From positions 1 through 39,981 of the forward strand of contig JACMIU010000073.1 of NCBI GenBank assembly GCA_014380985.1: a DNA stretch of 39,981 nt. Reading direction: 5' to 3'. Below are positions 5,099 through 39,981 of the stretch, piece after piece. A model generated the notes under the pieces. That model saw only the letters and a list, made by a program, of their open reading frames with translations, was not told the origin of the DNA and made no database searches. The translations under genes and the position numbers were made by a program. The DNA is from Armatimonadota bacterium. Its GTDB lineage: Bacteria; Armatimonadota; Armatimonadia; Armatimonadales; Armatimonadaceae. Within the stretch, counting starts at the first letter, position 1. Every line of letters begins with the position of its first letter.

Positions 5099-6421
5099 TT
5101 AATCGTCCTCGCGTCCGATGTGTGCGCCCAATCCACGCAGTTTGCCGACGATGTTTTCGTAGCCGCGTTCGACGTGGAACGTGTCGTAAACACGGGTTTC
5201 GCCGTCCGCCGCGAGCGCGGCGACAATCAGTGCCGCTCCGGCGCGAAGGTCGGTCGCCCGCACCGCCGCTCCGGAAAAGCGCGGGATGCCGGTGACTACG
5301 GCTTGGCGTCCGCCGTCCGCGACGACCTGTGCGCCCAACTTCGCCAGTTCGGTCAAATAGTTAAAGCGCGACTCGTACACCGTGTCGGTGACAATTGAAA
5401 CCCCATCGGCAAGTGCCAGCACGGAGGTGAACGGTTGCTGAAGATCGGTCGGAAAGCCGGGATGCGGCATCGCCGTGAGGCGCGTCGGCTTGATTCGAGT
5501 GCCGGGGTTGCCGAGAATCCGAACGCCCCCCGGCACATCCGTGGCTTCGACACCCATTTCGGCGAGTTTGAATAGCACGGCGCGAAGATCGGCGAACCGT
5601 GCGTTTTCCAAAACCACGTCGCCGCCGGTGATCGCCGCCGCCGCCGCGAACGTTCCCGCCTCAATCCGGTCGGGCATCACGGCGAACGTCGCGCCGTGGA
5701 GCGATTCAACGCCGCGAATGAAAATCGTGCCGGTTCCCTGCCCGGTTATATCCGCGCCCATCGTCGCAAGCAGATCGCCGAGGTTTTGCACATCGGGTTC
5801 CTGCGCGGCGTTTTGTATCACGGTTTCGCCGGGGGCAAGCGTCGCCGCCATCATGATATTCATCGTCGCGCCCACGGACGGCAAATCAAGATAGATATTC
5901 GCGCCTGATAGCCCGCTTTTGGGAGCGTAAGCACAAATCGCGCCGTGTTCGGCAGTCACGGTTGCGCCGAGCGCGGTCATGCCTTTAAGGTGTAAATCCA
6001 CTGCCCGCGCACCGATATGGCATCCACCCGGTTGCGGAATAATCGCCTTGCCAAGCCGCGCCAAAACGGGACCGAGAACCCAAAACGACGCCCGCATTCG
6101 CTCCACAAGTTCTACCGGGGCTTTGTGTTCGTGCAAACCGGAAGCGTTGATCCGAATCGTGTGACCGTCGCCCTCGAACGCCACTTTCGCGCCGAGACGC
6201 GAAAGCAGTTCGGCGAGTGTTTCGATGTCGGAAATGCGCGGTATATTCGTCAAAACTGTGTCGCCGCTTGCCGCCAAAAGCGCACCGGCAATCAGCGCGA
6301 CGGCGGCGTTTTTCGACCCGCCGATAGCCACCGTGCCGCAAAGCCGCTGTCCGCCGCGTACCACGATGCGCTTGTCGCCGCTATTTTCGCCCGTTCCACC
6401 GTTTTCCATGAACCGCCCCAT
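5099..6421 (-). CDS. murA: UDP-N-acetylglucosamine 1-carboxyvinyltransferase
   Basis: 440 aa. Motifs include VRGGQRLCGTVAIGGSKNAAVALIAGALLA and the active-site Cys context PQPGGCHIGARAVDLH, with a full-length EPSP-synthase-fold pattern. The true start may be the second ATG at 6409 (MENGG), which has better AGGA spacing. Confidence 0.93.
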   Translation of the reverse strand: MGRFMENGGTGENSGDKRIVVRGGQRLCGTVAIGGSKNAAVALIAGALLAASGDTVLTNIPRISDIETLAELLSRLGAKVAFEGDGHTIRINASGLHEHKAPVELVERMRASFWVLGPVLARLGKAIIPQPGGCHIGARAVDLHLKGMTALGATVTAEHGAICAYAPKSGLSGANIYLDLPSVGATMNIMMAATLAPGETVIQNAAQEPDVQNLGDLLATMGADITGQGTGTIFIRGVESLHGATFAVMPDRIEAGTFAAAAAITGGDVVLENARFADLRAVLFKLAEMGVEATDVPGGVRILGNPGTRIKPTRLTAMPHPGFPTDLQQPFTSVLALADGVSIVTDTVYESRFNYLTELAKLGAQVVADGGRQAVVTGIPRFSGAAVRATDLRAGAALIVAALAADGETRVYDTFHVERGYENIVGKLRGLGAHIGREDD

Positions 6422-6541
6422 CCTTGCCGCCGCTTGAAATATCGCCCTCAGTATATCCGCGTCACCGTTGTCTGTAAAGGGTACAATTTCGCTATTGGGA
6501 ACATTTGAAGCGGGCGCAAAGGTAGAAAAGGTACGAAAACT

Positions 6542-7120
6542 ATGGACGATTATTACCGCGTCCCCCTGTCCACCGCCGAGGCGACCGTTACCGTCGCCGT
6601 GCTTCGCGCCGTGTGTGCGCTTTTGCAGGAGCCGGGCGTATCGTCCGACATCGCGCCTGAAACCCTCGAATCCGCCGCCGCCCGCATCGAAGCGGAAATC
6701 CCGGATTTTTTAGCCGTTTCCGCAGAAAAACTGCGCCCGCTCCTCACCGAAGCCCTCGCGCAAGCCAACTTTGTTGCGGGCGACTCCGACACAGAAGGAA
6801 CGTCGCCGTTACCGCTTCGAATCGGTAGAACACGTCGGCTACTGGGGCAGGCGGAGCGTAGCACCGGCATTGCCGAGATTGAGTATTTTGTCACCAGCCG
6901 GAACGAATGGACGACGCGGCGCGTCCAAATAAGCGACGTTTACGAAAACGAGGGCGGTTGGTATCTGGAAGGCGAGTGTATGCTTCGCCGCGATCACCGG
7001 ATGTTCAAACTGGAACACATACGCGCTGTTCGCATCGTACAGGACGATGACGGCGAGGAAGAATTGGATCCGTTCGATGGGGAAGGGAACGCCGGACGCC
7101 GGCATAGCACACAAGAATGA
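6542..7120 (+). CDS. WYL-domain-like protein without a recognisable HTH
   Basis: 192 aa. The C-terminal half, IEYFVTSRNEWTTRRVQISDVYENEGGWYLEGECMLRRDHRMFKLEHIRAVRIV, fits the WYL pattern (Y..R.V.P/I......WYL.G.C...R..R.F.L..I). The N-terminal roughly 100 aa have no motif I recognise. Its stop overlaps the next gene's start (ATGA at 7117-7120). Confidence 0.6.
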   Translation: MDDYYRVPLSTAEATVTVAVLRAVCALLQEPGVSSDIAPETLESAAARIEAEIPDFLAVSAEKLRPLLTEALAQANFVAGDSDTEGTSPLPLRIGRTRRLLGQAERSTGIAEIEYFVTSRNEWTTRRVQISDVYENEGGWYLEGECMLRRDHRMFKLEHIRAVRIVQDDDGEEELDPFDGEGNAGRRHSTQE

Positions 7121-8124
7121 TGAATCTAAGTAGTTCGTTGGCGACCAAACCCGCGGAAGCACCGATTGTTCCGGCGTCGTCTGTTGCGTCGCCCGCCACC
7201 GCGCCGCTTCTCGAACCGGGTTTTTTGCGGAAACTGGAACGGCTGGCCCTCGGCGCGGAACGCGCCCCGACCGCACGCCTTCAAGGCGAACGTCGCACGA
7301 CCCGGCGTGGCGCAAGTCTGGAGTTCGCCGACTACCGTGAGTACACGGCGGGCGACGATTTGCGCTACGTGGACTGGAAAGCGTATGCCCGTCTCGACCG
7401 GCTTTTCGTCAAACTGTTCGTCGCCGAGGAGGATTTGGGGATTCACTTGCTGTTGGACGCTTCGGAAAGCATGAACTTTGTAGGAAACGAGGGTTCCTCC
7501 GCTCCGGCTCCCGCGCTCAACAAGTTCGCGTTTGCCCGTAAAGCCGTCGCCGCGCTCGGCTACGTCGGCTTGATGCGCTACGACCGCGTGGGCGTGACCG
7601 GTTTCGCGCAAGGCGGTTCGCTCGATCGGGCGATGGGCGGACGGCGCACCCCGACCCTGCGCGGTCGCCGCGCCACCACCGAACTGTTCGGCTACCTGCA
7701 AAACCTGCGCCCCGGCGGACGCACCGATTTTTCCACCGCCCTACAGGACTACGCCCGCCGCGCTTCGACACCGGGCGTGTGCGTGGTGGCGTCCGACTTC
7801 ATGGATCCGCACTGGGAAAAGGGCGTCAAGGCGTTGCTCGCCCGCCGCTTTCAGGTGGTGCTACTCCATGTATTGTCGCCGGAGGAGATGAACCCGACGC
7901 TTTCGGGCGACCTGCGCCTTGTGGATTCCGAAACCGGCGCGGTGCGCGACGTGAGCATTACGCCGGATTTAATAGTGCGTTACAAAGCCGCGCTTCAATC
8001 GTTCTGCGACCGGATGGAAGCCGTCGCCGCGAAATACGGCATGGAGTACATCCGCACTACGACCGACACGCCGGTCGAAGAGTTGCTGCTTTCTACGCTC
8101 CGGCGTAGCGGATTGCTTCGGTAG
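7117..8124 (+). CDS. DUF58 family (vWA-like) protein
   Basis: 335 aa. It carries the hallmark DUF58 stretch GASLEFADYREYTAGDDLRYVDWKAYARLDRLFVKLFVAEEDLGIHLLLDASESM, followed by a vWA-like core. Confidence 0.85.
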   Translation: MMNLSSSLATKPAEAPIVPASSVASPATAPLLEPGFLRKLERLALGAERAPTARLQGERRTTRRGASLEFADYREYTAGDDLRYVDWKAYARLDRLFVKLFVAEEDLGIHLLLDASESMNFVGNEGSSAPAPALNKFAFARKAVAALGYVGLMRYDRVGVTGFAQGGSLDRAMGGRRTPTLRGRRATTELFGYLQNLRPGGRTDFSTALQDYARRASTPGVCVVASDFMDPHWEKGVKALLARRFQVVLLHVLSPEEMNPTLSGDLRLVDSETGAVRDVSITPDLIVRYKAALQSFCDRMEAVAAKYGMEYIRTTTDTPVEELLLSTLRRSGLLR

Positions 8125-31918: not shown

Positions 31919-32155
31919 ATGAACACTTTAACCGATACCGATTCCGTTGCCGTGGACTCCACGATGTTACAAGCCGTCGCCTATCATGCCGAAACGCAAG
32001 TTTTGACACTGACGTTTCACGATGGCGCGGTCTACGAATACGACGATGTGCCGCAGTCGGTGTACGATGAACTGCTGAATGCCGAAAGCAAGGGGCAGTA
32101 CGCCCATTCGCGGATTATAGACTGCTACCCGTACCGCAAGGTGCGCCGCCGATAA
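31919..32155 (+). CDS. KTSC-domain protein
   Basis: 78 aa. VDSTMLQAVAYHAETQVLTLTFHDGAVYEYDDVPQSVYDELLNAESKGQYAHSRI matches the KTSC domain pattern. Confidence 0.75.
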   Translation: MNTLTDTDSVAVDSTMLQAVAYHAETQVLTLTFHDGAVYEYDDVPQSVYDELLNAESKGQYAHSRIIDCYPYRKVRRR

Positions 32156-32275
32156 AGCCCGACGCCCACGCTACTGCGATACTGCGGTCGTCGCGTCAAG
32201 ATTCGCTTGTGCTACGATACCTGTTGCTCCCGAACCGCCGACCCCCTCGCTAAAAATCGGATAAAATAAACCGAT

Positions 32276-32800
32276 ATGCGTGACGAAGCCGATTTATCTT
32301 TGTTGTTCCCGCCCACGGATACCTGCTATATTTGCGGCATGGCGCACTCGTCCTCCGCCGACAACTGTCCCCGTTGCGGGGCGACCGGGGGAGACATCCG
32401 GTTACTGCTACGCGCCGGGGCGAAGGCGTATTCGCACGCCCGCGAAGCCGCACTCGCGTACCGCTTCGCCGAGGCGCGTGAGCATCTGCGCGTTGCGGCG
32501 TCGCTTGGACTGGGGCAATGCGCGGCGTGTTGGGAACTCTCGCGCCTTGTCGAAAAAAGCGATGCCAACGTCGGCGCGAACGAGGACGCCGATTATGCCC
32601 TCGCGCACCATCTGGCGAAGGAAGGGCGGCACGACGCGGTACGAGCCATCGCGTTGCCGCCGACTCCGATTGCTACGGAGTTGCGCCGTTTATCCCAACA
32701 AGCCGCGACACAAACCCGACAACAATACGGGGGTGCAATAGTGCGGTACGCGCTTTGGGGAGTGTTTTGCGTGTTTCTTGCTATAATAGCAGGATGTTAG
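32276..32800 (+). CDS. Hypothetical tail-anchored protein with an N-terminal zinc ribbon
   Basis: 174 aa. CYICGMAHSSSADNCPRCG (CxxC-x10-CxxC), a helical middle region, and a C-terminal TM IVRYALWGVFCVFLAIIAGC. Competing overlapping ORFs are compositionally poorer. Confidence 0.55.
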   Translation: MRDEADLSLLFPPTDTCYICGMAHSSSADNCPRCGATGGDIRLLLRAGAKAYSHAREAALAYRFAEAREHLRVAASLGLGQCAACWELSRLVEKSDANVGANEDADYALAHHLAKEGRHDAVRAIALPPTPIATELRRLSQQAATQTRQQYGGAIVRYALWGVFCVFLAIIAGC

Positions 32801-32928
32801 CGGCATTGGCGGGAACCTTTCCCCGTGCTTTTTGTGTCATTTATATTCCCGGCAACGAAAAGGTTCAGCGTTGCCGGGAAGTCATCGCCCGTAGCGAAGC
32901 GGGCAGGTAAATCGTTGGAACAGTTTCT

Positions 32929-34266
32929 ATGGCGATGGATGGCGGAAGCGAAGACAGTTTATACACCGTGTTAGGCGTTGCGGAAACCGCGACCGCCGAC
33001 GAGATTAAACGCGCCTACTATCAATTGGTACGGCAGGTGCGCCCGGACGCCGACCCGAAAACGTACCACACGTTTCAAAACGCCGGAGTGGTGCTGTCCG
33101 ACCCACGAAAACGGCGCGAATACGATCAGTTGCGCGATGCCGGACGTCGCGTCGAGGTGCTGACCGACCAAGCCGCCGCCGCCGTGGCAAGCGACCCGCA
33201 AAAAGCGTTCGGATTGCTCAAAGCCGCCGTGGAAATCGCGCCCGACGCCCCGCGTCCGCGCCTCCTGCTCGCGCACGTTTTGACGCGCCTCAACGATTTT
33301 ATGGGCGCGGAAAAGCAGTATCGGCATTTGCTCAAAGAACGCCCTTTCGACGAAACGCTGATGTACCGCTTCGCCCGTTGCCTGTTTGTGCAGGAACGCT
33401 ACGACGATGCCGAGCGGGTTTTGGGCGGGGCGGTGCGTCTCAACCCGCGCTACCACGACGCGCACATATTGCTCGGTCGAATCTACGAGAAATCGGGGCA
33501 GTTCGGCGCGGCGATTTACGCGCTGGAAAAATCCATCGAGAACGACGGCGCGGAGGATTACGCCGATTTCGACGCGCTACTTCGCTTGCTGACCCTGCAC
33601 CTGCGGATGGAGAACGGCGCGGAAGCGGAGAGTACGGCACAGCGCATCATGGCGGTTTTGCCCGCGCCGAACACCCCCGACCCGACCCGGCAATGTGAGC
33701 GGGCGGCGAAACGGATGCTTGATCGCGCCAGAGAACTGGTTTCCGAGGATGCCGTAATCACCGTTCGCGCTCTCGCCGCCCTCGGCGCACGGCTCCCGAA
33801 TGGAACGCCGGAAACCGCACAAGCCTTTGCCGAAGTGTCGCGGGACGCCCGCTTGTTCGCGGAGGCAAAGCACCTACAAGAGGACCATCTCGCCCCGCCC
33901 GCGCTGAAGCGTCTTGCCGAGGGCTTGTATCTGAACCGCAACCTGCCCGAATCCGAACGCGCCGCGAGGAAGCGCGAAGTCACCGACGCTCTGCACGAAG
34001 CCGTGACCACCAACGCCGCGAAGATTCAAAACGTGCTGGAATATATCAAGCGCGAATACCCGTTTTTTAGCGCGGAACAAGGCGCGTTGCTTTCCGAAAC
34101 TGCCGCCCGCGCCGTGCGCCGCCTCGCTATAAACGGGGAATCTTCCTCAAATATGGGAAACGCCGCCGATCTCCCGCCCGGCGGAATCGCTCCGGTAGAA
34201 TCGCCAGAAGCGGCACTGCCCGCTTCGCGCAAAGGCTTCATGGGCTGGTTCAAGGGCAAGAAATAG
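32929..34266 (+). CDS. J-domain-like protein with TPR repeats (HPD replaced by RPD)
   Basis: The N-terminus SLYTVLGVAETATADEIKRAYYQLVRQVRPDADP...LSDPRKRREYDQL has J-domain architecture. It is followed by TPR-like repeats (e.g. YDDAERVLGGAVRLNPRYHDAHILLGRIYEKSGQFGAAIYALEKSIE). Confidence 0.8.
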   Translation: MAMDGGSEDSLYTVLGVAETATADEIKRAYYQLVRQVRPDADPKTYHTFQNAGVVLSDPRKRREYDQLRDAGRRVEVLTDQAAAAVASDPQKAFGLLKAAVEIAPDAPRPRLLLAHVLTRLNDFMGAEKQYRHLLKERPFDETLMYRFARCLFVQERYDDAERVLGGAVRLNPRYHDAHILLGRIYEKSGQFGAAIYALEKSIENDGAEDYADFDALLRLLTLHLRMENGAEAESTAQRIMAVLPAPNTPDPTRQCERAAKRMLDRARELVSEDAVITVRALAALGARLPNGTPETAQAFAEVSRDARLFAEAKHLQEDHLAPPALKRLAEGLYLNRNLPESERAARKREVTDALHEAVTTNAAKIQNVLEYIKREYPFFSAEQGALLSETAARAVRRLAINGESSSNMGNAADLPPGGIAPVESPEAALPASRKGFMGWFKGKK

Positions 34267-34342
34267 GTCGTGGTCGGCGAAAACTTCGTTTTGCCTGCTT
34301 TACCCGGCGACAACCCTCAGCGAAAGTTTTTTCGCGCCCCGC

Positions 34343-34371
34343 TTGACAGGCGACAAAAACACGGCTATACT
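34343..34371 (+). promoter_or_regulatory. Sigma70-like promoter (TTGACA-17 nt-TATACT)
   Basis: ttgaca at 34343-34348, a 17-nt spacer, and tatact at 34366-34371. It lies about 175 nt upstream of the pilin-like gene's ATG. Confidence 0.5.
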
Positions 34372-34546
34372 ACACCCATTCCGACAGTCTGAATCAACAG
34401 AATGGGTAGGATAAAAACTGTTTCGTGCTACGCAACGTTGCGCTCCCTCTTACGGAAAATTGTTCGCGGCATAAAGTCGCCGCCCGTGCTGCTTGGTGAA
34501 CAAGCGGCACATCCTATCACCGCCCGGTTTTTGGAGGATTCTGTTT

Positions 34547-35521
34547 ATGCACAATGCTATCACTGCCTACCGCCCTGTCTCGGCGAAACGCTCTGCCTTT
34601 ACCTTAATCGAACTGCTCGTCGTTATAGCGATAATCGCCATCCTCGCCGCGATTCTATTCCCCGTGTTCGCCAAAGCGCGAGATACGGCGCGAAAAGCCG
34701 CATCCATCAGCAACGTGAATCAGATTTTGAAAGCGCAACTGATGTACATTCAAGATTACGATGAAACATTCTGTCCCGCCGTTGCGGATGACAACCCTAA
34801 ACTAAACGATGGCGCGAACTATATTGACTGGGATGCCTCGTGGATGCTAAAACTACAACCATACACAAAAAGCACGGCTGTTTTCAAGTCACCCAACGGT
34901 CTTGGCAACGAGCCGAATGTTTCCGAATCTGCTCTTTTTCCGGTACGTACCAGCGGATATACCATCTATTCGTATGCTATGATGCCGCGCTGGAAGGTCT
35001 ATACCGGTGACGATCCGGGTGTCGGGGCGAATGGCACTTGGAAAACCGGCTATGCAACCGCCCTTTATGAAGGTGTAGGCGGCTATCAGCGTGATCCTGC
35101 GGTCGCGGCACGATTCGGCGGTGGCGACCCATGCGGAGTTGGTGCTACGCAAGCAAAACGTGTGCAAGCCCCATCGCGCTCACTTGGCGAGGTTGCCCGT
35201 CCATCAGAAACAGCACTGGTGGTCGAAGCGCGTGGCTGGGACTATGGCTTTACCTGCGTCAACTATTACCCCGCTCCAATTGATGCCGATACTTACCCTC
35301 CCGTGACATCAAGCACCGAAGGCGTAAACTTCGCGGGACGTTACAGTTTTGAGGGAACCAAAACCTACGCCGCGACCGGGCAGGTCAAATACCAGATTGG
35401 GTTCGGTCCCGTCGGTTTCACCGATGGTCATGTCAAGGCGATGAAAACGGAGCAATTCTTTGACACGATAATCCTGAAAAATGGGGCGAGAGCGTACAAG
35501 TATCAATACGCTTTGGAGTAA
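34547..35521 (+). CDS. Prepilin-type N-terminal methylation-domain protein (pseudopilin-like, DUF1559-like family; tentative)
   Basis: Start at ATG 34547, with GGAGGA 8 nt upstream. Class III signal SAFTLIELLVVIAIIAILAAILFPVFAKARD. The C-terminal FTDGHVKAM resembles the conserved DG(H) end of this family. Confidence 0.85.
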   Translation: MHNAITAYRPVSAKRSAFTLIELLVVIAIIAILAAILFPVFAKARDTARKAASISNVNQILKAQLMYIQDYDETFCPAVADDNPKLNDGANYIDWDASWMLKLQPYTKSTAVFKSPNGLGNEPNVSESALFPVRTSGYTIYSYAMMPRWKVYTGDDPGVGANGTWKTGYATALYEGVGGYQRDPAVAARFGGGDPCGVGATQAKRVQAPSRSLGEVARPSETALVVEARGWDYGFTCVNYYPAPIDADTYPPVTSSTEGVNFAGRYSFEGTKTYAATGQVKYQIGFGPVGFTDGHVKAMKTEQFFDTIILKNGARAYKYQYALE

Positions 35522-35524
35522 CAA

Positions 35525-35737
35525 ATGAGTAACCGAACAATACAATTACTTGTCGTGGTCACATCGGCACTGAGCCTTTTGACCTCCTCCGGGTGTTTCA
35601 AGGAATATCCCGGTGACCCGCCTGTAACCGCGCCGAAAGCAGGGGAAGGTAGCAGGGCAAAGGCTCCTACCGCTCCCGCGTCCGACGCTACCGAGACAAA
35701 CGCCTCGCCGGCACAGACACGTAGCGACGGCAGATAG
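35525..35737 (+). CDS. Small probable lipoprotein
   Basis: 70 aa. MSNRTIQLLVVVTSALSLLTSSGC is a signal peptide with a Cys in lipobox position (non-ideal SSGC), followed by a Pro/Ala-rich tail. It starts 3 nt after the pilin-like gene's stop. Confidence 0.5.
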   Translation: MSNRTIQLLVVVTSALSLLTSSGCFKEYPGDPPVTAPKAGEGSRAKAPTAPASDATETNASPAQTRSDGR

Positions 35738-35756
35738 CCGGTCGCATAGGAAACGA

Positions 35757-36548
35757 ATGGCGAAAGGCAACCTGATCGTCCACGGTGGCGGCACGACCGG
35801 CAAAGATGCAACCGGCGCATTCCTAAAATGTGTCGGTTCGATGTCCGCGCCTATTGTAGTGCTGGGGCAGGTGTCGGAAGACCCGGTAGCGAAAGGCAAA
35901 TCTTCCGGTGATTGGCTCCGCGAGAACGGCGCGACCAATGTTTACGCCGCACAAATTACCGAACGCGACGCCACGACCCTACCCGAACTGTGCGCGAAAC
36001 TCGAAACGGCGCGGGGCTACTGGATACCGGGCGGCGACCAGAACCGCTTCATGCGCCTGTTCAAAGATACCCCCGTGCCGAAGTTGCTTCGCGCCATTAT
36101 CGAGCGCGGCGGGGCAGGCGGCGGTTCGTCGGCGGGCGCGTCCCTGTGCGGCGAGATCATGCCCACCGGCTACAGCGGACTGCGTCCGACCGAGGACGAA
36201 GACCGCGCCAACCTCAAAAAAAACACCGTGGGAACCGCGCCGGGCTTGAATGTTTTGCCCGGCTTCCTCGTGGACACGCACTTCCTACGCCGCGAACGCA
36301 CCCAGCGCAGTTTGGACATGGTGCTGACGCATCCGCGCTTCGCCGCCCTCGGCGTCGAGCAGGACGGTTGGCTTCACGCCGATTTAGCGAAGGGGACGCT
36401 CACCGTCGGCGCGGGGCAGGTAGTGACGATTCGCGCCGCCGCGCCCGTGCGTACCGGCGCGGATACTATTCTCGGTTGCCAAGATGTGCGGATGCGCGTA
36501 TTGCTTCCCAGCGACACCGTGCGACTGTTCGATATACTCAAACCATGA
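35757..36548 (+). CDS. Peptidase S51 family, cyanophycinase-like (no signal peptide)
   Basis: 263 aa. Motifs: YWIPGGDQNRFM, the nucleophile context GGGSSAGASLCG, and LVDTHFLRRERTQRSLDMV, which matches the cyanophycinase-type DxHF..R.R..R pattern. Confidence 0.8.
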   Translation: MAKGNLIVHGGGTTGKDATGAFLKCVGSMSAPIVVLGQVSEDPVAKGKSSGDWLRENGATNVYAAQITERDATTLPELCAKLETARGYWIPGGDQNRFMRLFKDTPVPKLLRAIIERGGAGGGSSAGASLCGEIMPTGYSGLRPTEDEDRANLKKNTVGTAPGLNVLPGFLVDTHFLRRERTQRSLDMVLTHPRFAALGVEQDGWLHADLAKGTLTVGAGQVVTIRAAAPVRTGADTILGCQDVRMRVLLPSDTVRLFDILKP

Positions 36549-37462
36549 CACGTCGCCACCTACTCACCGCGTTCGCCGGAACTCTTGCCCTACCCTCTCT
36601 CACCTATGCCGAAGATTTGCCCGACGCCGCGCCGCCGTCGTTCCCGCTCGGAAAGGGCGGATTCGCTTACACCGAGCCGCCGGGTTCGCCGTATGCCGGG
36701 GTGCGAATCGCCGTGCATACGTACTGCCCGCTGAACATTGACCCACGCCTGACGGATCGCGTGTTGTTCGTGATGCACGGAACCCTGCGAAACGGCGGAA
36801 CCTACCGCGATCAATGGATGAACCTTGCGGAGAAATACGGCGCACTGATTCTCGTGCCGGAGTTCACCCGCGAGCATTTCGCGGGCGGAATGTACAACCG
36901 GGGCAATGTGCGCGGGCAGGACGACAAAACGCCGGTTCCGTCGCAAGCGTGGACATTCCCCGTTATCGAACGCCTTTTCGCGTACTACAAAACCATTGCC
37001 CGCAACCCGGTGCGCGGTTACTACATCTACGGTCATTCGGCGGGCGGGCAGTTCGTGCATCGGTTAATCGAGTTTTTGCCCACGGCACGGATTATCCGCG
37101 CCGTCGCCGCGAACGCCGGGTACTACACCCTCCCTGATAAAACCGCCGACCCGTACCCGTTTAGCCGCACGGGAACGCCCGACGAGTCGGAGGCGGCGCG
37201 GCGGGCGATTTTCGCGCAACCGCTGACGATTCTGTTAGGCGAGGCGGACACCGACCCTGATGACCCCGATTTGTACCGGAGCGCGGAAGCCGACAAGCAG
37301 GGCATCACGCGCTTCGAGCGCGGCAAGTATTTCTACGAAACCGCGAGGCGCGTCACGGTGCGCGATCAGCTGTTTTTGAACTGGAAACTGGTCACGGTTC
37401 CCGGCGTCGGACACAGCAACGAGAAAATGGCTCCGGCGGCGGCGCGGGTTTTGTTTGAATAA
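36545..37462 (+). CDS. Tat-exported alpha/beta-hydrolase (esterase/depolymerase-like)
   Basis: The start at 36545 forms an ATGA overlap with the upstream stop. Twin-arginine signal MTRRHLLTAFAGTLALPSLTYA. Nucleophile elbow YIYGHSAGGQ. It is the C-terminal part of the spurious 516-aa track ORF. Confidence 0.8.
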   Translation: MTRRHLLTAFAGTLALPSLTYAEDLPDAAPPSFPLGKGGFAYTEPPGSPYAGVRIAVHTYCPLNIDPRLTDRVLFVMHGTLRNGGTYRDQWMNLAEKYGALILVPEFTREHFAGGMYNRGNVRGQDDKTPVPSQAWTFPVIERLFAYYKTIARNPVRGYYIYGHSAGGQFVHRLIEFLPTARIIRAVAANAGYYTLPDKTADPYPFSRTGTPDESEAARRAIFAQPLTILLGEADTDPDDPDLYRSAEADKQGITRFERGKYFYETARRVTVRDQLFLNWKLVTVPGVGHSNEKMAPAAARVLFE

Positions 37463-37496
37463 AGTCCCCCGCGGGGACTGAAAGACAACGAGAAAA

Positions 37497-38315
37497 ATGT
37501 ACCGATTACTCATGTGTGCGCCCACCTATTTCGGCGTCGAATATGTTATCAACCCGTGGATGGAAGGCAAACTCGGCGGCGTTTCCACCGGCACGGCAGG
37601 GGCGCAGTGGCACGATTTACACGCGCTACTGACCGAAACACTCGGCGCGACCGTGACACAGGTTCCGCCGCAACCCGGTTTGCCCGACATCGTTTTCACC
37701 GCGAATGCCGCTTCCGTTTGGGGCGGCAAGGCGGTTCCGGCGCGGTTTAAGCACCCGGAGCGGCAGGGCGAGGAACCGTTTTACCGTGCCGCTTTAGAGA
37801 ACGCCGGGTACGAAATCCATGATTTGCCGGAGGGTATCGCGTTCGAGGGCGCGGGCGACGCGCTTTTTTGGGAAGGCGACACCGAAGCCCCGCTGCTGTT
37901 CGCCGCGCATGGCTGGCGCACCGACGACGCCGCGCACGGATTTTTGTCCACGACGTTCGGCGTCGAAGTCGTGTCTCTCGCACTGACCGATCCTCGTTTC
38001 TACCATCTGGACACGTGCTTTTGCCCGCTTCCCGGCGGCTTCCTGCTCTGGTATCCGCCCGCGTTCGATGCGGCAAGTCAAGAAATTATCGCGGCACGGG
38101 TTCCGTCGGCGAAACGCCTTGCCGTCTCGGACACCGACGCGGCAACGTTCGCTTGTAATGCAGTCGGCGTTGGCAATCATGTGGTGATGAACGCGGCGAC
38201 GAACGCCCTGCGCGAATCGCTGGCGTCGTGGGGATTCTCCGCGCACGCTACGCCGCTGGACGAGTTTATGAAAGCGGGCGGCTCGGCGAAATGCCTGACG
38301 CTACGATTGCTCTAA
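37497..38315 (+). CDS. Guanidino-group-modifying enzyme superfamily protein (amidinotransferase / arginine deiminase / dihydrolase / DDAH-like)
   Basis: 272 aa. The N-terminus MYRLLMCAPTYFGVEYVINPWM, FYHLDTCFCPLP and the C-terminal catalytic-Cys context GGSAKCLTLRL are typical of this fold. The exact reaction cannot be assigned from sequence alone. Confidence 0.75.
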   Translation: MYRLLMCAPTYFGVEYVINPWMEGKLGGVSTGTAGAQWHDLHALLTETLGATVTQVPPQPGLPDIVFTANAASVWGGKAVPARFKHPERQGEEPFYRAALENAGYEIHDLPEGIAFEGAGDALFWEGDTEAPLLFAAHGWRTDDAAHGFLSTTFGVEVVSLALTDPRFYHLDTCFCPLPGGFLLWYPPAFDAASQEIIAARVPSAKRLAVSDTDAATFACNAVGVGNHVVMNAATNALRESLASWGFSAHATPLDEFMKAGGSAKCLTLRLL

Positions 38316-38327
38316 AACGTAAAAAAC

Positions 38328-39011
38328 ATGATACTACCGGACACCGACCAACTTGCCAGCGCGACCATCGGAGCGCGGATACAACGGCTTCGCCTCAAGC
38401 AAAGTCTGTCGGTGCGCGACCTTGCCGACAAAGCGGGCGTGGATAAAAATACCGTGCTTCGCGTCGAAAAAGGCTTGAGCGTGTCGGGGCGCACTTTGGA
38501 GCGTGTCTGCGGCGCACTCGGCGTGTACGTTTCGCGTCTGCTTCTGCCCGAACCCGGCGAAGAGGAAACCGTGGTCATTCACCGCCGCGCCAAAGAAACA
38601 TGGTGGCCCTATCCCGGCATGGGCGACCCGTTTCCCGATGAGATGGGGGGCGAAGCGGGCGGCGTACCGGTTCCCAAATCCACCGATGCGACGCCTCGCG
38701 GCGAAGTCGCGTCATTAGAAGCACGGCTTCCCCGTGGCAAAATGCGCTCGTCGCTCCTGCGGCTTTGGGAGGAAACCACACCGAACGCGCACCCCGGCGA
38801 GGAGTTTGTTTTCTGCGTTTCCGGCGCGGCGATTCTTCGTATCGCCGGGCAGGAGTATCCACTCGGCGAGGGCGATGCGGCGAACTTTTACTGCGCCGAA
38901 CCGCACACCTATGCGCCCGCTTCCGACTCTTCCCCCGCCGATTCGGGCGAAAACTCGTTTTCGACTTTGCCCGTGCTACTACTCACTGTTTGGCACGATT
39001 CGCAGGAGTAG
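38328..39011 (+). CDS. XRE-family HTH transcriptional regulator with a C-terminal cupin domain
   Basis: HTH IGARIQRLRLKQSLSVRDLADKAGVDKNTVLRVEKG. Cupin NAHPGEEFVFCVSGAAILRIAGQEYPLGEGDAANF. It starts 12 nt after the upstream stop. Confidence 0.85.
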   Translation: MILPDTDQLASATIGARIQRLRLKQSLSVRDLADKAGVDKNTVLRVEKGLSVSGRTLERVCGALGVYVSRLLLPEPGEEETVVIHRRAKETWWPYPGMGDPFPDEMGGEAGGVPVPKSTDATPRGEVASLEARLPRGKMRSSLLRLWEETTPNAHPGEEFVFCVSGAAILRIAGQEYPLGEGDAANFYCAEPHTYAPASDSSPADSGENSFSTLPVLLLTVWHDSQE

Positions 39012-39092
39012 CGGCAGGTCGGTGGCTTGAATACAGCCCGCGAAAAAGCCCACCGCGCCCGCAGTGCAGCCACCGCAGGTTGTTTGTCACAA

Positions 39093-39122
39093 CTTGCATA
39101 AATACCGATGTTTCGACTATAA
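39093..39122 (+). promoter_or_regulatory. Sigma70-like promoter (TTGCAT-18 nt-TATAAT)
   Basis: ttgcat at 39093-39098, an 18-nt spacer, and tataat at 39117-39122. It lies about 60 nt upstream of ATG 39182. Confidence 0.45.
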
Positions 39123-39181
39123 TACTGATGTGGCAGTCGTGCCGCAAATGTCCCACTCTGGTCGCAAGGAGAACCGTTCCC

Positions 39182-39910
39182 ATGCCGCAACTTGCCTGTC
39201 TTTTAGCCCGCGCCGCCCATCGTTTTGCCGCGCACGTCGTCTGCGCCGCGTTTTCCTTATTTCTTGTTGCGCTTCCCGCTTCCGCAAGCGTGACGCTCAC
39301 CTTTGACACGATTACCGGCATGAGCAACGCGCCCACGGCAACCGTTCCCGTCGAATCCCGTCTTTCCAATCAGTTCGCCACATCCGGCGTTGTATTTCGC
39401 AGTGGCTCCGGGGCGACGTATGTAGCCGTAGTTGATCTCAGCGGCACCGGCACGACCAGTTTGCCCAACGGTATTGGGGGCGCAACGCTTGCTGATACGC
39501 TCACTTACACTGGGTCGCCGCTGATTATCGCTAACTTCGTTGACCCTGCGAACGCCGTGACGCCGTTTGTGACCGACTTCGTTTCCGTACGTGCCGACAC
39601 GATTCCGTCGGGCGGAACCATCGGACTACAAGCGTTTGATGTTTTTGGTGCGTTGATCGGTTCGGTCAGCGAAACGGACACGGGCGGCAACACGCTCATT
39701 ATCAATACACCCGGAATCAACCGCGTCGAGATACTCGGTAGCACCAATGCCGACGTTGCCTACGACGATTTCACGTTCAACGACGTTACCCCGCTCGTCG
39801 CTGTCGTACCGGAAGCGGGGACGTTCGCGCTTCTCGGTTTCGCGCTTGTACCGGTCGGAGTCGGGTTGGTGCGTTCCCCACACTGGGGCGGTGCGCCGGA
39901 AGTAGAGTAG
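39182..39910 (+). CDS. Secreted protein with a degenerate PEP-CTERM-like C-terminus (PEA variant)
   Basis: Start at ATG 39182, with AAGGAGA upstream. Signal peptide ...AAFSLFLVALPASA. The C-terminus VVPEAGTFALLGFALVPVGVGLVR is followed by 11 extra residues. The track ORF's long N-terminal extension (from 38765) overlaps the regulator gene and is Arg-rich junk. Confidence 0.7.
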   Translation: MPQLACLLARAAHRFAAHVVCAAFSLFLVALPASASVTLTFDTITGMSNAPTATVPVESRLSNQFATSGVVFRSGSGATYVAVVDLSGTGTTSLPNGIGGATLADTLTYTGSPLIIANFVDPANAVTPFVTDFVSVRADTIPSGGTIGLQAFDVFGALIGSVSETDTGGNTLIINTPGINRVEILGSTNADVAYDDFTFNDVTPLVAVVPEAGTFALLGFALVPVGVGLVRSPHWGGAPEVE

Positions 39911-39981
39911 CGTGGAACCGGCGAAATGAGTGGGTATGCCGGGGGGCGGGTAACAGCGGGGAGCGAATTAACGGGGCCGCA

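Follow-up and report, generated by a model that had tools for sequence, protein, structure and literature searches.

Ben Hania et al. and Sharon et al. have reported gene clusters for scavenging cyanophycin, which combine a cyanophycinase with IadA, IaaA or CphZ, often together with amino-acid transporters, and lack cphA, and the enzyme of the isoaspartyl step is still undiscovered in several phyla (PMC10206079, PMC9974463). The cyanobacterial route leads from the cyanophycinase CphB, through an isoaspartyl dipeptidase, to ArgZ/AgrE (PMC10504260). The PahZ1 enzymes, known from the PahZ1/PahZ2 system of Sphingomonas sp. KT-1 and from Pedobacter sp. KP-2, act in the periplasm, where they hydrolyse beta-aspartyl amide bonds (PMC13017698). 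Here we describe an operon at positions 34343-39011 of a 39,981-nucleotide (nt) stretch of an Armatimonadota bacterium (GenBank assembly GCA_014380985.1, contig JACMIU010000073.1), referred to below as the window, in which predicted relatives of CphB, PahZ1 and the catalytic domain of ArgZ are encoded next to one another. This is probably one repressor-controlled operon that harvests nitrogen and carbon from cyanophycin-type material, meaning chains of aspartate to which arginine is attached by beta-aspartyl bonds.

Both the ORF list and a reading of the sequence place six open reading frames (ORFs; g1 to g6) on the forward strand at 34547-39011, separated from g1 to g6 by 3, 19, -4 (an ATGA overlap), 34 and 12 nt. 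They encode a prepilin-like protein (g1), a mini-lipoprotein (g2), a cyanophycinase-like S51 peptidase (g3), a PahZ1-type hydrolase (g4), an ArgZ-type arginine dihydrolase (g5) and an XRE-cupin regulator (g6). The original prediction, made from the letters of this stretch and its ORFs, had given the strand and the spacing exactly. Its family calls also held in profile and PDB searches and could be sharpened, with its hydrolase bearing a twin-arginine (Tat) signal now identified as a PahZ1 homologue, its guanidino-group-modifying enzyme as ArgZ-type and its cyanophycinase-like S51 peptidase found to keep the critical residues of CphB/CphE. The g3 pocket, the ArgZ type of g5 and the PahZ1 type of g4 agree with its proposal that the enzymes point to cyanophycin or another Asp-Arg polymer.

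The locus resembles the described scavenging loci in having an S51 cyanophycinase-type gene, without cphA, beside a second hydrolase fit for beta-aspartyl bonds, and in a logic whereby external cyanophycin would be the nitrogen and carbon source. However, its second hydrolase is of the PahZ1 type with a Tat signal, rather than IadA, IaaA or the M14-like CphZ; it has no transporter, and its additional genes are those of the prepilin-like/lipoprotein cassette, a dihydrolase of the ArgZ type and a presumed XRE-cupin repressor, for which there is a putative operator. Cyanobacterial catabolism uses three enzyme types, two of which are represented here (g3 resembling CphB and g5 the ArgZ catalytic domain), and g3, g4 and g5 are arranged in the sequence of the steps. 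In contrast, the cyanobacterial genes serve an internal store, ArgZ is a protein of approximately 700 amino acids with a C-terminal domain that the 272 amino acids of g5 do not include, and the middle enzyme of the operon (g4) belongs to a different family and is predicted to be exported. With the PahZ1/PahZ2 system the operon shares the fold family of g4 (40-42 % identity), the catalytic triad, the substrate-positioning arginine and periplasmic targeting, but the partner of g4 is a cyanophycinase-like S51 peptidase instead of the M28 family PahZ2, and no PahZ2-like protein was detected near g4.

The g3 gene (35757-36548, forward strand) encodes a predicted cyanophycinase-like S51 serine peptidase of 263 amino acids, in which all of the critical pocket residues of CphB/CphE are kept. 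It barely passes the Pfam Peptidase_S51 cut-off (26.1 bits; cut-off 23.9) and matches the PDB structure of CphB (3en0) with an E value of 3e-15. Residues critical for the activity of CphB are Gln101, Ser132, Asp172, Gln173, His174, Arg178, Arg180 and Arg183, and the active extracellular cyanophycinase CphE has a threonine in place of Gln173 (PMC3235067). The g3 nucleophile Ser125, within GSSAGA (GxSxG), and His175, within VDTHF, align with CphB Ser132 and His174 and are invariant in 28 relatives. Similarly, Gln95, Asp173, Thr174, Arg179, Arg181 and Arg184 occupy the positions of CphB Gln101, Asp172, Gln173, Arg178, Arg180 and Arg183, respectively, with Thr174 matching the substitution found in CphE. 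The alignment of these 28 relatives shows no variation in the GGDQ motif or at Ser125, Asp173, His175, Arg179 and Arg181, and little at Arg184. The glutamate of the triad (E201 in CphB, E251 in CphE) lies 27 residues past the histidine; most of the other relatives have V/I-D-E at this position, and the clade of the window has VEQD, where Gln202 is the aligned residue and Glu201 precedes it by one. The protein has no signal peptide, its ORF cannot be extended upstream, and its size is that of the intracellular CphB.

The g4 gene (36545-37462, forward strand), the start of which overlaps the g3 stop codon (ATGA), encodes an alpha/beta serine hydrolase of 305 amino acids that is a homologue of the PahZ1 poly(aspartic acid) hydrolases and is predicted to be exported by the Tat route. 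While it has no match in Pfam, residues 28-304 match PahZ1 of strain KT-1 (PDB 6ve6; E 7e-55, 42 % identity) and the protein also matches PahZ1 of strain KP-2 (PDB 9o7u; E 1e-47). An exact look-up of the g4 sequence returned no record. Its distance from the KT-1 enzyme is about that between the two characterised PahZ1 enzymes themselves (40 % identity). The Ser157-Asp225-His280 triad of PahZ1 and the substrate-positioning Arg246 have been validated by mutation (PMC13017698); S157, D225, R246 and H280 align with S165, D235, R256 and H290 of g4, which are invariant or nearly so in 27 homologues. Inspection by eye suggests a twin-arginine signal at the N-terminus (MTRRHLL..TYA-ED), and an [ST]RRxLL motif stands at the N-termini of seven of the nine homologues listed, with a Sec-type signal in one other.

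The g5 gene (37497-38315, forward strand) encodes a member of the guanidino-modifying superfamily, predicted to be a stand-alone ArgZ-type arginine dihydrolase. It matches the PDB structure of the Sll1336/ArgZ catalytic domain with 53 % identity over 264 residues (E 4e-87). The family model NF052232 ranks first for g5, followed by mycobacterial DDAH with 237 bits; the match covers positions 6-269 of this 696-position bifunctional model and leaves out the C-terminal ornithine-cyclodeaminase-like domain. The protein carries the motifs AKCLTLR, YHLDTCF and FTANA. Among the functional residues of ArgZ we count the catalytic cysteine towards the C-terminus, the histidine within YHLDTCF and Asn71, which belongs to FTANA. 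The last gene, g6 (38328-39011, forward strand), encodes an XRE-family helix-turn-helix (HTH) and cupin regulator of 227 amino acids, with HTH_3 at residues 18-68 (E 8e-9) and Cupin_2 at residues 149-203 (E 5e-10). The arrangement of an N-terminal HTH_3 and a C-terminal Cupin_2 domain is that of the PuuR-type XRE-cupin repressors, as is the location of the gene at the end of a presumably repressed catabolic operon. However, g6 scores just 37 bits on the PuuR equivalog model (cut-off 211), and its operator sequence and ligand may differ. Orthologues of g6 (57-81 % identity) end the operon in the related Armatimonadota loci L001-L005 and L007.

A sigma-70-type promoter precedes the six genes at 34343-34371 on the forward strand, with TTGACA at 34343-34348, a spacer of 17 nt and TATACT at 34366-34371. 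It matches the consensus in 11/12 positions and is the top one of six promoter-like sites in 32000-39981 (2.7 +/- 1.7 by chance). Both hexamers are kept at the same position in L001, L003, L004, L005 and L007, and because of this conservation in five related loci the site is more than a chance match. The promoter of the original prediction thus stands. Three 9/12 matches within coding sequence are not above chance and were rejected as internal promoters. Approximately 7 nt past the -10 box, at about +1, lies a 15-bp palindrome (34379-34393, forward strand), TTCCGACAGTCTGAA, which follows the pattern TTCNGACNGTCNGAA and is a putative operator. The window contains the pattern once, against a chance expectation of 0.09. 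Of 92 loci compared, L001-L005 and L007 alone have it, in one or two copies (two abutting) at the same position, and a count over 172 loci gives the same six. The gene for the XRE-cupin regulator is present in precisely these six; L006 and L088 have neither regulator nor motif. This co-occurrence of operator and regulator gene constitutes good indirect support for binding of g6 to TTCCGACAGTCTGAA, presumably as a repressor of the promoter, and for one promoter driving all six genes, and the earlier proposal of a unit regulated by the XRE-cupin protein gains from it.

Between the operator and g1 extends a long 5' leader (34394-34546, forward strand), with a second conserved block at approximately 34425-34455, followed by a GGAGGA ribosome-binding site. 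The block comprises a palindrome, CGCAACGTTGCG (34431-34442), and then CCCTCTTA, and is visible in six related loci. The DNA upstream of the pilin-like gene is better conserved than the gene itself, with the leaders of the window and L001 sharing 77 % identity and the pilin-like proteins downstream of them just 33 %. A riboswitch or structured leader was considered and rejected: Rfam at gathering thresholds gave no match in the whole window, the folding z-score of the leader is just -1.8, and RNAalifold found no covariation among six leaders. Conservation of the leader is better read as that of protein-binding DNA. The block at 34425-34455 could serve as a further site for a protein to bind or as an anti-Shine-Dalgarno sequence.

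The survey of gene neighbourhoods in related Armatimonadota recovered the gene set beyond the window, as the original prediction had called for. The full order of pilin-like gene, small ORF, S51, PahZ1-like, ArgZ-like and XRE-cupin genes recurs in L001/L002 (enzymes 82-89 % identical; L002 is part of assembly GCA_043737335.1) and in L003 and L004 (68-76 %), and the genes that flank the operon differ between L001/L002, L003 and L004. At 45-61 % identity, L005 and L007 keep the pilin-like, S51, hydrolase and regulator genes, and L006 keeps the S51, hydrolase and g5-like genes without the regulator. The pilin-like, S51 and hydrolase genes of L093 lie on a short contig, and in L088 the S51 gene is followed directly by a g5-like gene (55 % identical), with no hydrolase. 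Considering those loci where the S51 protein is at least approximately 45 % identical and the DNA reaches far enough, an S51 gene followed by a PahZ1-like gene is found in the window, L001/2, L003, L004, L005, L006, L007 and L093, with differing flanks; in five of these loci the two genes keep the ATGA overlap. The members of a distant S51 clade (37-42 % identity) occur in other contexts, with none of g4, g5 or g6 nearby. In L003 (9214-10004) the S51 gene is split by a frameshift into two overlapping ORFs; the contig name gives a coverage of about 2x, and a sequencing error is likely. Two tandem genes for CbiX (chelatase-like) precede the S51, hydrolase (where present) and ArgZ-like genes in L006 (8252-9128) and L088 (5262-6159), which belong to a Capsulimonadales-type lineage. 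A second, different kind of hydrolase-S51 coupling is seen in L090 (7126-8714), from another Armatimonadota lineage, where the gene for an Abhydrolase_3/S9-like alpha/beta hydrolase overlaps the S51 start by 4 nt.

When species-representative genomes were scanned with an alignment of the hydrolase, 80 PahZ1-like loci were obtained from many phyla, at 36-48 % identity, and their same-strand neighbours are heterogeneous. A general S51/PahZ1 link across bacteria was rejected, with the pair present in just 2/80 loci outside the Armatimonadota. These two belong to termite-gut Bacteroidales metagenome-assembled genomes (L066, 2294-17107; L073, 2630-12762), where the gene for an S51 lipoprotein lies directly upstream of the PahZ1-like gene. 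The S51 lipoprotein of L066 reaches 150.1 bits on TIGR02069, above the equivalog cut-off, and is a bona fide cyanophycinase with a signal peptide. In both loci the pair sits behind genes for SusC, SusD and a 528-amino-acid surface lipoprotein and is followed by those for an S46 peptidase, closest to the Asp/Glu-specific DPP11, and M28 peptidases. The M28 proteins were rejected as PahZ2-like; they match GCPII-like and aminopeptidase-Y-like proteins, with no poly(aspartic acid) hydrolase among the PDB matches. The locus looks like one dedicated to the utilization of cyanophycin or polyaspartate. It shares its enzyme pair with the Armatimonadota operon. The pair for outer-membrane uptake in front of these enzymes can be formally compared with the envelope genes at the head of the operon, but g1 and g2 are unrelated to SusC/SusD and are generic in the Armatimonadota. 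Furthermore, a gene for a bona fide beta-aspartyl-peptidase IadA (above the TIGR01975 cut-off) lies directly beside the PahZ1-like gene, on the same strand, in four loci: L016 (1595-3717; Pirellulales) and L040 (52-1975), L065 (8767-10765) and L069 (4450-6517) of the Bacteroidales/Bacteroidia. Taken with the Bacteroidales pair, these IadA neighbourhoods tie PahZ1-like genes repeatedly to enzymes for the breakdown of cyanophycin or beta-aspartyl peptides.

If the operon serves the harvesting of cyanophycin, g6 would sit on TTCNGACNGTCNGAA and block transcription when no inducer is present, and binding of a small ligand by the cupin domain would release it, candidates being arginine, beta-Asp-Arg and related products. 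Once exported, g4 would cut the beta-aspartyl amide bonds of incoming polymer or oligomers in the periplasm, freeing arginine and/or shortening the fragments, and would stand in for the IadA/IaaA/CphZ step that the locus lacks. The products would be taken up via transporters encoded elsewhere, the cytoplasmic g3 would cut the alpha-linked aspartate backbone of the imported fragments, and g5 would convert arginine to ornithine, CO2 and two ammonia. In cyanophycin, the bond between the Asp beta-carboxyl and the Arg alpha-amino group is of the same type as that cut by PahZ1 in polyaspartate. We infer the substrates, the order of the steps, the inducer and the uptake by unlinked transporters. More tentatively, and with greater doubt than for the operon itself, the natural job of the PahZ1 family may be the processing of cyanophycin, whereby the enzyme, located at the cell surface or in the periplasm, would sever the branches at their beta-aspartyl-arginine bonds in a second, 'debranching' route, with the Armatimonadota operon and the Bacteroidales SusC/D locus as two independent inventions.

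Several observations weigh against the harvesting of cyanophycin. The main awkward point is the export signal of g4 beside the signal-less g3 and g5, which leaves no simple one-compartment pathway. The g3 protein scores 101.1 bits (E 7e-29) on the TIGR02069 cyanophycinase model, under the curated equivalog cut-off of 126.6, and its triad glutamate is displaced by one residue in the clade of the window (VEQD versus VDE); g5 reaches 336.8 bits on NF052232, under the curated cut-off of 450. Arginine catabolism is not obligatory to the unit, as g5 is missing from L005 and L007. No S51 neighbour occurs in 78/80 of the PahZ1-like loci outside the Armatimonadota, and PahZ1 activity is proven for synthetic polyaspartate alone, from which Asp, not Arg, is released. 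Neither IadA, IaaA nor CphZ was found among the operon proteins or the other window genes scanned, and no transporter adjoins the operon in the window or in L001-L007. The original prediction had already remarked on the lack of an isoaspartyl dipeptidase and a transporter in the window and had taken the pathway to be incomplete; the lack stands, but the gap could be filled by the PahZ1-type g4. Part of this evidence would suit the salvage of polyaspartate or isoaspartyl peptides, where arginine would not be central: the PahZ1-type enzyme would cut Asp-beta-Asp bonds of damaged proteins or acidic peptides of natural origin, the S51 protein would act like peptidase E on alpha-aspartyl peptides and the ArgZ-like gene would be an add-on of certain lineages. 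The activity of PahZ1 on Asp-beta-Asp bonds is proven (PMC13017698), the S51 family also includes the alpha-aspartyl dipeptidase PepE (PMC3235067), and the absence of g5 from two loci, the Asp/Glu-specific DPP11-like enzyme of the Bacteroidales locus and the IadA neighbours, which point to beta-aspartyl peptides generally, are all compatible with it. We nevertheless regard such salvage as unlikely, given that g3 scores much higher on the cyanophycinase model (101 bits) than on the general one for S51 (26 bits) and retains the Asp and all three arginines of the pocket for cyanophycin, and that the Bacteroidales partner exceeds the cyanophycinase equivalog cut-off. The adjacency of the S51 and ArgZ-like genes in L088, even without the hydrolase, likewise speaks against it and supports a cyanophycin substrate.

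Two further explanations concern where cyanophycin would be degraded and whose it would be, and both seem improbable. The operon could mobilise the organism's own cyanophycin store, as cphB does in cyanobacteria, rather than scavenge; the absence of a signal peptide from g3 and its intracellular-CphB size would agree with this, and an enzyme of the g5 type handles store-derived arginine in Synechocystis (PMC10504260). However, no cphA was found in the scanned window genes or in the related loci, whereas cphA1 and the cyanophycinase gene are clustered in 81 % of the genomes having both (PMC10206079), and g4 carries a conserved export signal and envelope proteins head the unit. Alternatively, g3 and g4 could form a complex, both being exported on the Tat signal of g4 with g3 as a 'hitchhiker', so that degradation of the polymer would be completed in the periplasm, leaving g5 alone to work in the cytoplasm. 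The Tat route exports folded complexes. The 4-nt overlap (ATGA) of g3 and g4 is kept in five loci, across relatives just 52-89 % identical, and more distant S51 relatives, as well as the Bacteroidales cyanophycinase, carry signal peptides of their own; against co-export, translational coupling is common between ordinary pathway partners.

The first two genes of the operon, g1 (34547-35521, forward strand; 324 amino acids) and g2 (35525-35737, forward strand; 70 amino acids), constitute a generic, swappable two-gene cassette of the Armatimonadota. The prepilin-type (DUF1559-like) g1 protein has the cleavage/methylation motif SA-FTLIELLVV (N_methyl PF07963, E 7e-8, 32 bits; TIGR02532, 29 bits). 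It has no direct match to PF07596/DUF1559 at E <= 0.01, but its full-length homologues (E 7e-38 to 1e-23) carry PF07596 and a common C-terminal DGH motif aligns. A role as solute-binding protein, after the Pfam name SBP_bac_10, was rejected; the AlphaFold2 model is confident (mean predicted local distance difference test score, pLDDT, 92.7), and Foldseek against the PDB returned matches to the pilin N-terminal helix only. The mini-lipoprotein g2 shows, by eye, a signal peptide, the lipobox LTSSGC and a Pro/Ala-rich tail, and had no family match in profile scans. Every locus has a pilin-like gene at the head of the unit, but these genes are not all orthologous: the pilin-like proteins of L001-L004 are 33-40 % identical to g1, whereas the enzymes of the same loci are 70-89 % identical. 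Pilin-like genes with a lipobox ORF of 45-86 amino acids behind them are found three times in L007 and also in L001, L003, L004 and L092. The true g1 orthologues P0161, P0162 and P0182 were judged to accompany the operon on other contigs. Members of the g1 subfamily are also found alone in unrelated neighbourhoods (L091, L092), and L001-L004 use another pilin subfamily, for which reasons g1 and g2 were rejected as dedicated, co-evolving parts of the system. The pilin/lipoprotein capture module of the original prediction is not borne out as a dedicated one: only the position is kept, the pilin subfamilies differ and the g1 model shows no solute-binding fold. A role of g1/g2 in capture, secretion or substrate handling is no more than possible. 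As an observation in its own right, a pilin-like gene followed within a few bases by a lipobox ORF of 45-86 amino acids occurs in many unrelated Armatimonadota neighbourhoods, and sites of this cassette include 34547-35737 of the window, 1-626, 6061-7170 and 8082-9228 of L007, and 8001-9058 of L092. The guanine-plus-cytosine (GC) content of g1 is 52.7 %, compared with approximately 62 % for the enzyme and regulator genes g3-g6 and 58.5 % for the window, which is consistent with exchange of the cassette or with different constraints.

The spacer between g4 and g5 contains a hairpin (37463-37479, forward strand) with a 7-bp GC-rich stem (AGTCCCC-CGC-GGGGACT; -11.8 kcal/mol). It had been noted earlier as a 6-bp hairpin at 37464-37478; the hairpin exists, with a stem one base pair longer and correspondingly shifted limits. 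As a terminator or regulatory element it was rejected, since it has no U tract and is not kept in L001, L003 or L004. Upstream the operon adjoins a DnaJ-TPR gene, and 164 nt downstream follows a gene (39176-39910) that is not kept beside the operon in relatives; by eye, its product has a PEP-CTERM-like C-terminal tail. The remaining window (842-31529 and 39176-39910) is an exopolysaccharide/exosortase-type locus, with a Wzz/tyrosine-kinase gene, several glycosyltransferase genes, and genes for a flippase, a Wzy-like protein, Poly_export, an EpsI-like DUF3485 protein and a 912-amino-acid PA14 protein. The last of these was considered as cphA and rejected on its identity as a PA14 protein.

Cyanophycin-scavenging loci are already described (PMC10206079, PMC9974463), so that the system as a whole is less novel than originally supposed, and the link to a PahZ1-type hydrolase is the new part. 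A search of the available library of papers returned none pairing PahZ or 'aspartic acid hydrolase' with cyanophycin, and no link between Armatimonadota and cyanophycinase beyond one incidental co-mention. A 2026 paper on PahZ1 gives the enzyme no natural role and does not mention cyanophycin, a natural substrate or an operon (PMC13017698). Cyanophycin is a widespread nitrogen store, the breakdown products of which are shared in microbial communities, and the operon, together with the Bacteroidales and IadA-linked loci, places a PahZ1-type enzyme beside cyanophycinase and arginine-catabolic genes. Two gaps in the literature, namely the isoaspartyl enzyme in some phyla and the natural role of PahZ1, are thereby reduced to one simple enzyme assay. 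If active on cyanophycin, PahZ1-type enzymes would also be attractive in practice for the production of polyaspartate or arginine from cyanophycin of biological origin. If the proposal is true, the PahZ1 type would supply the isoaspartyl-bond hydrolase lacking in some phyla, and with its promoter, putative operator and repressor the operon offers a rare handle on regulation and nutrient use in the poorly studied Armatimonadota.

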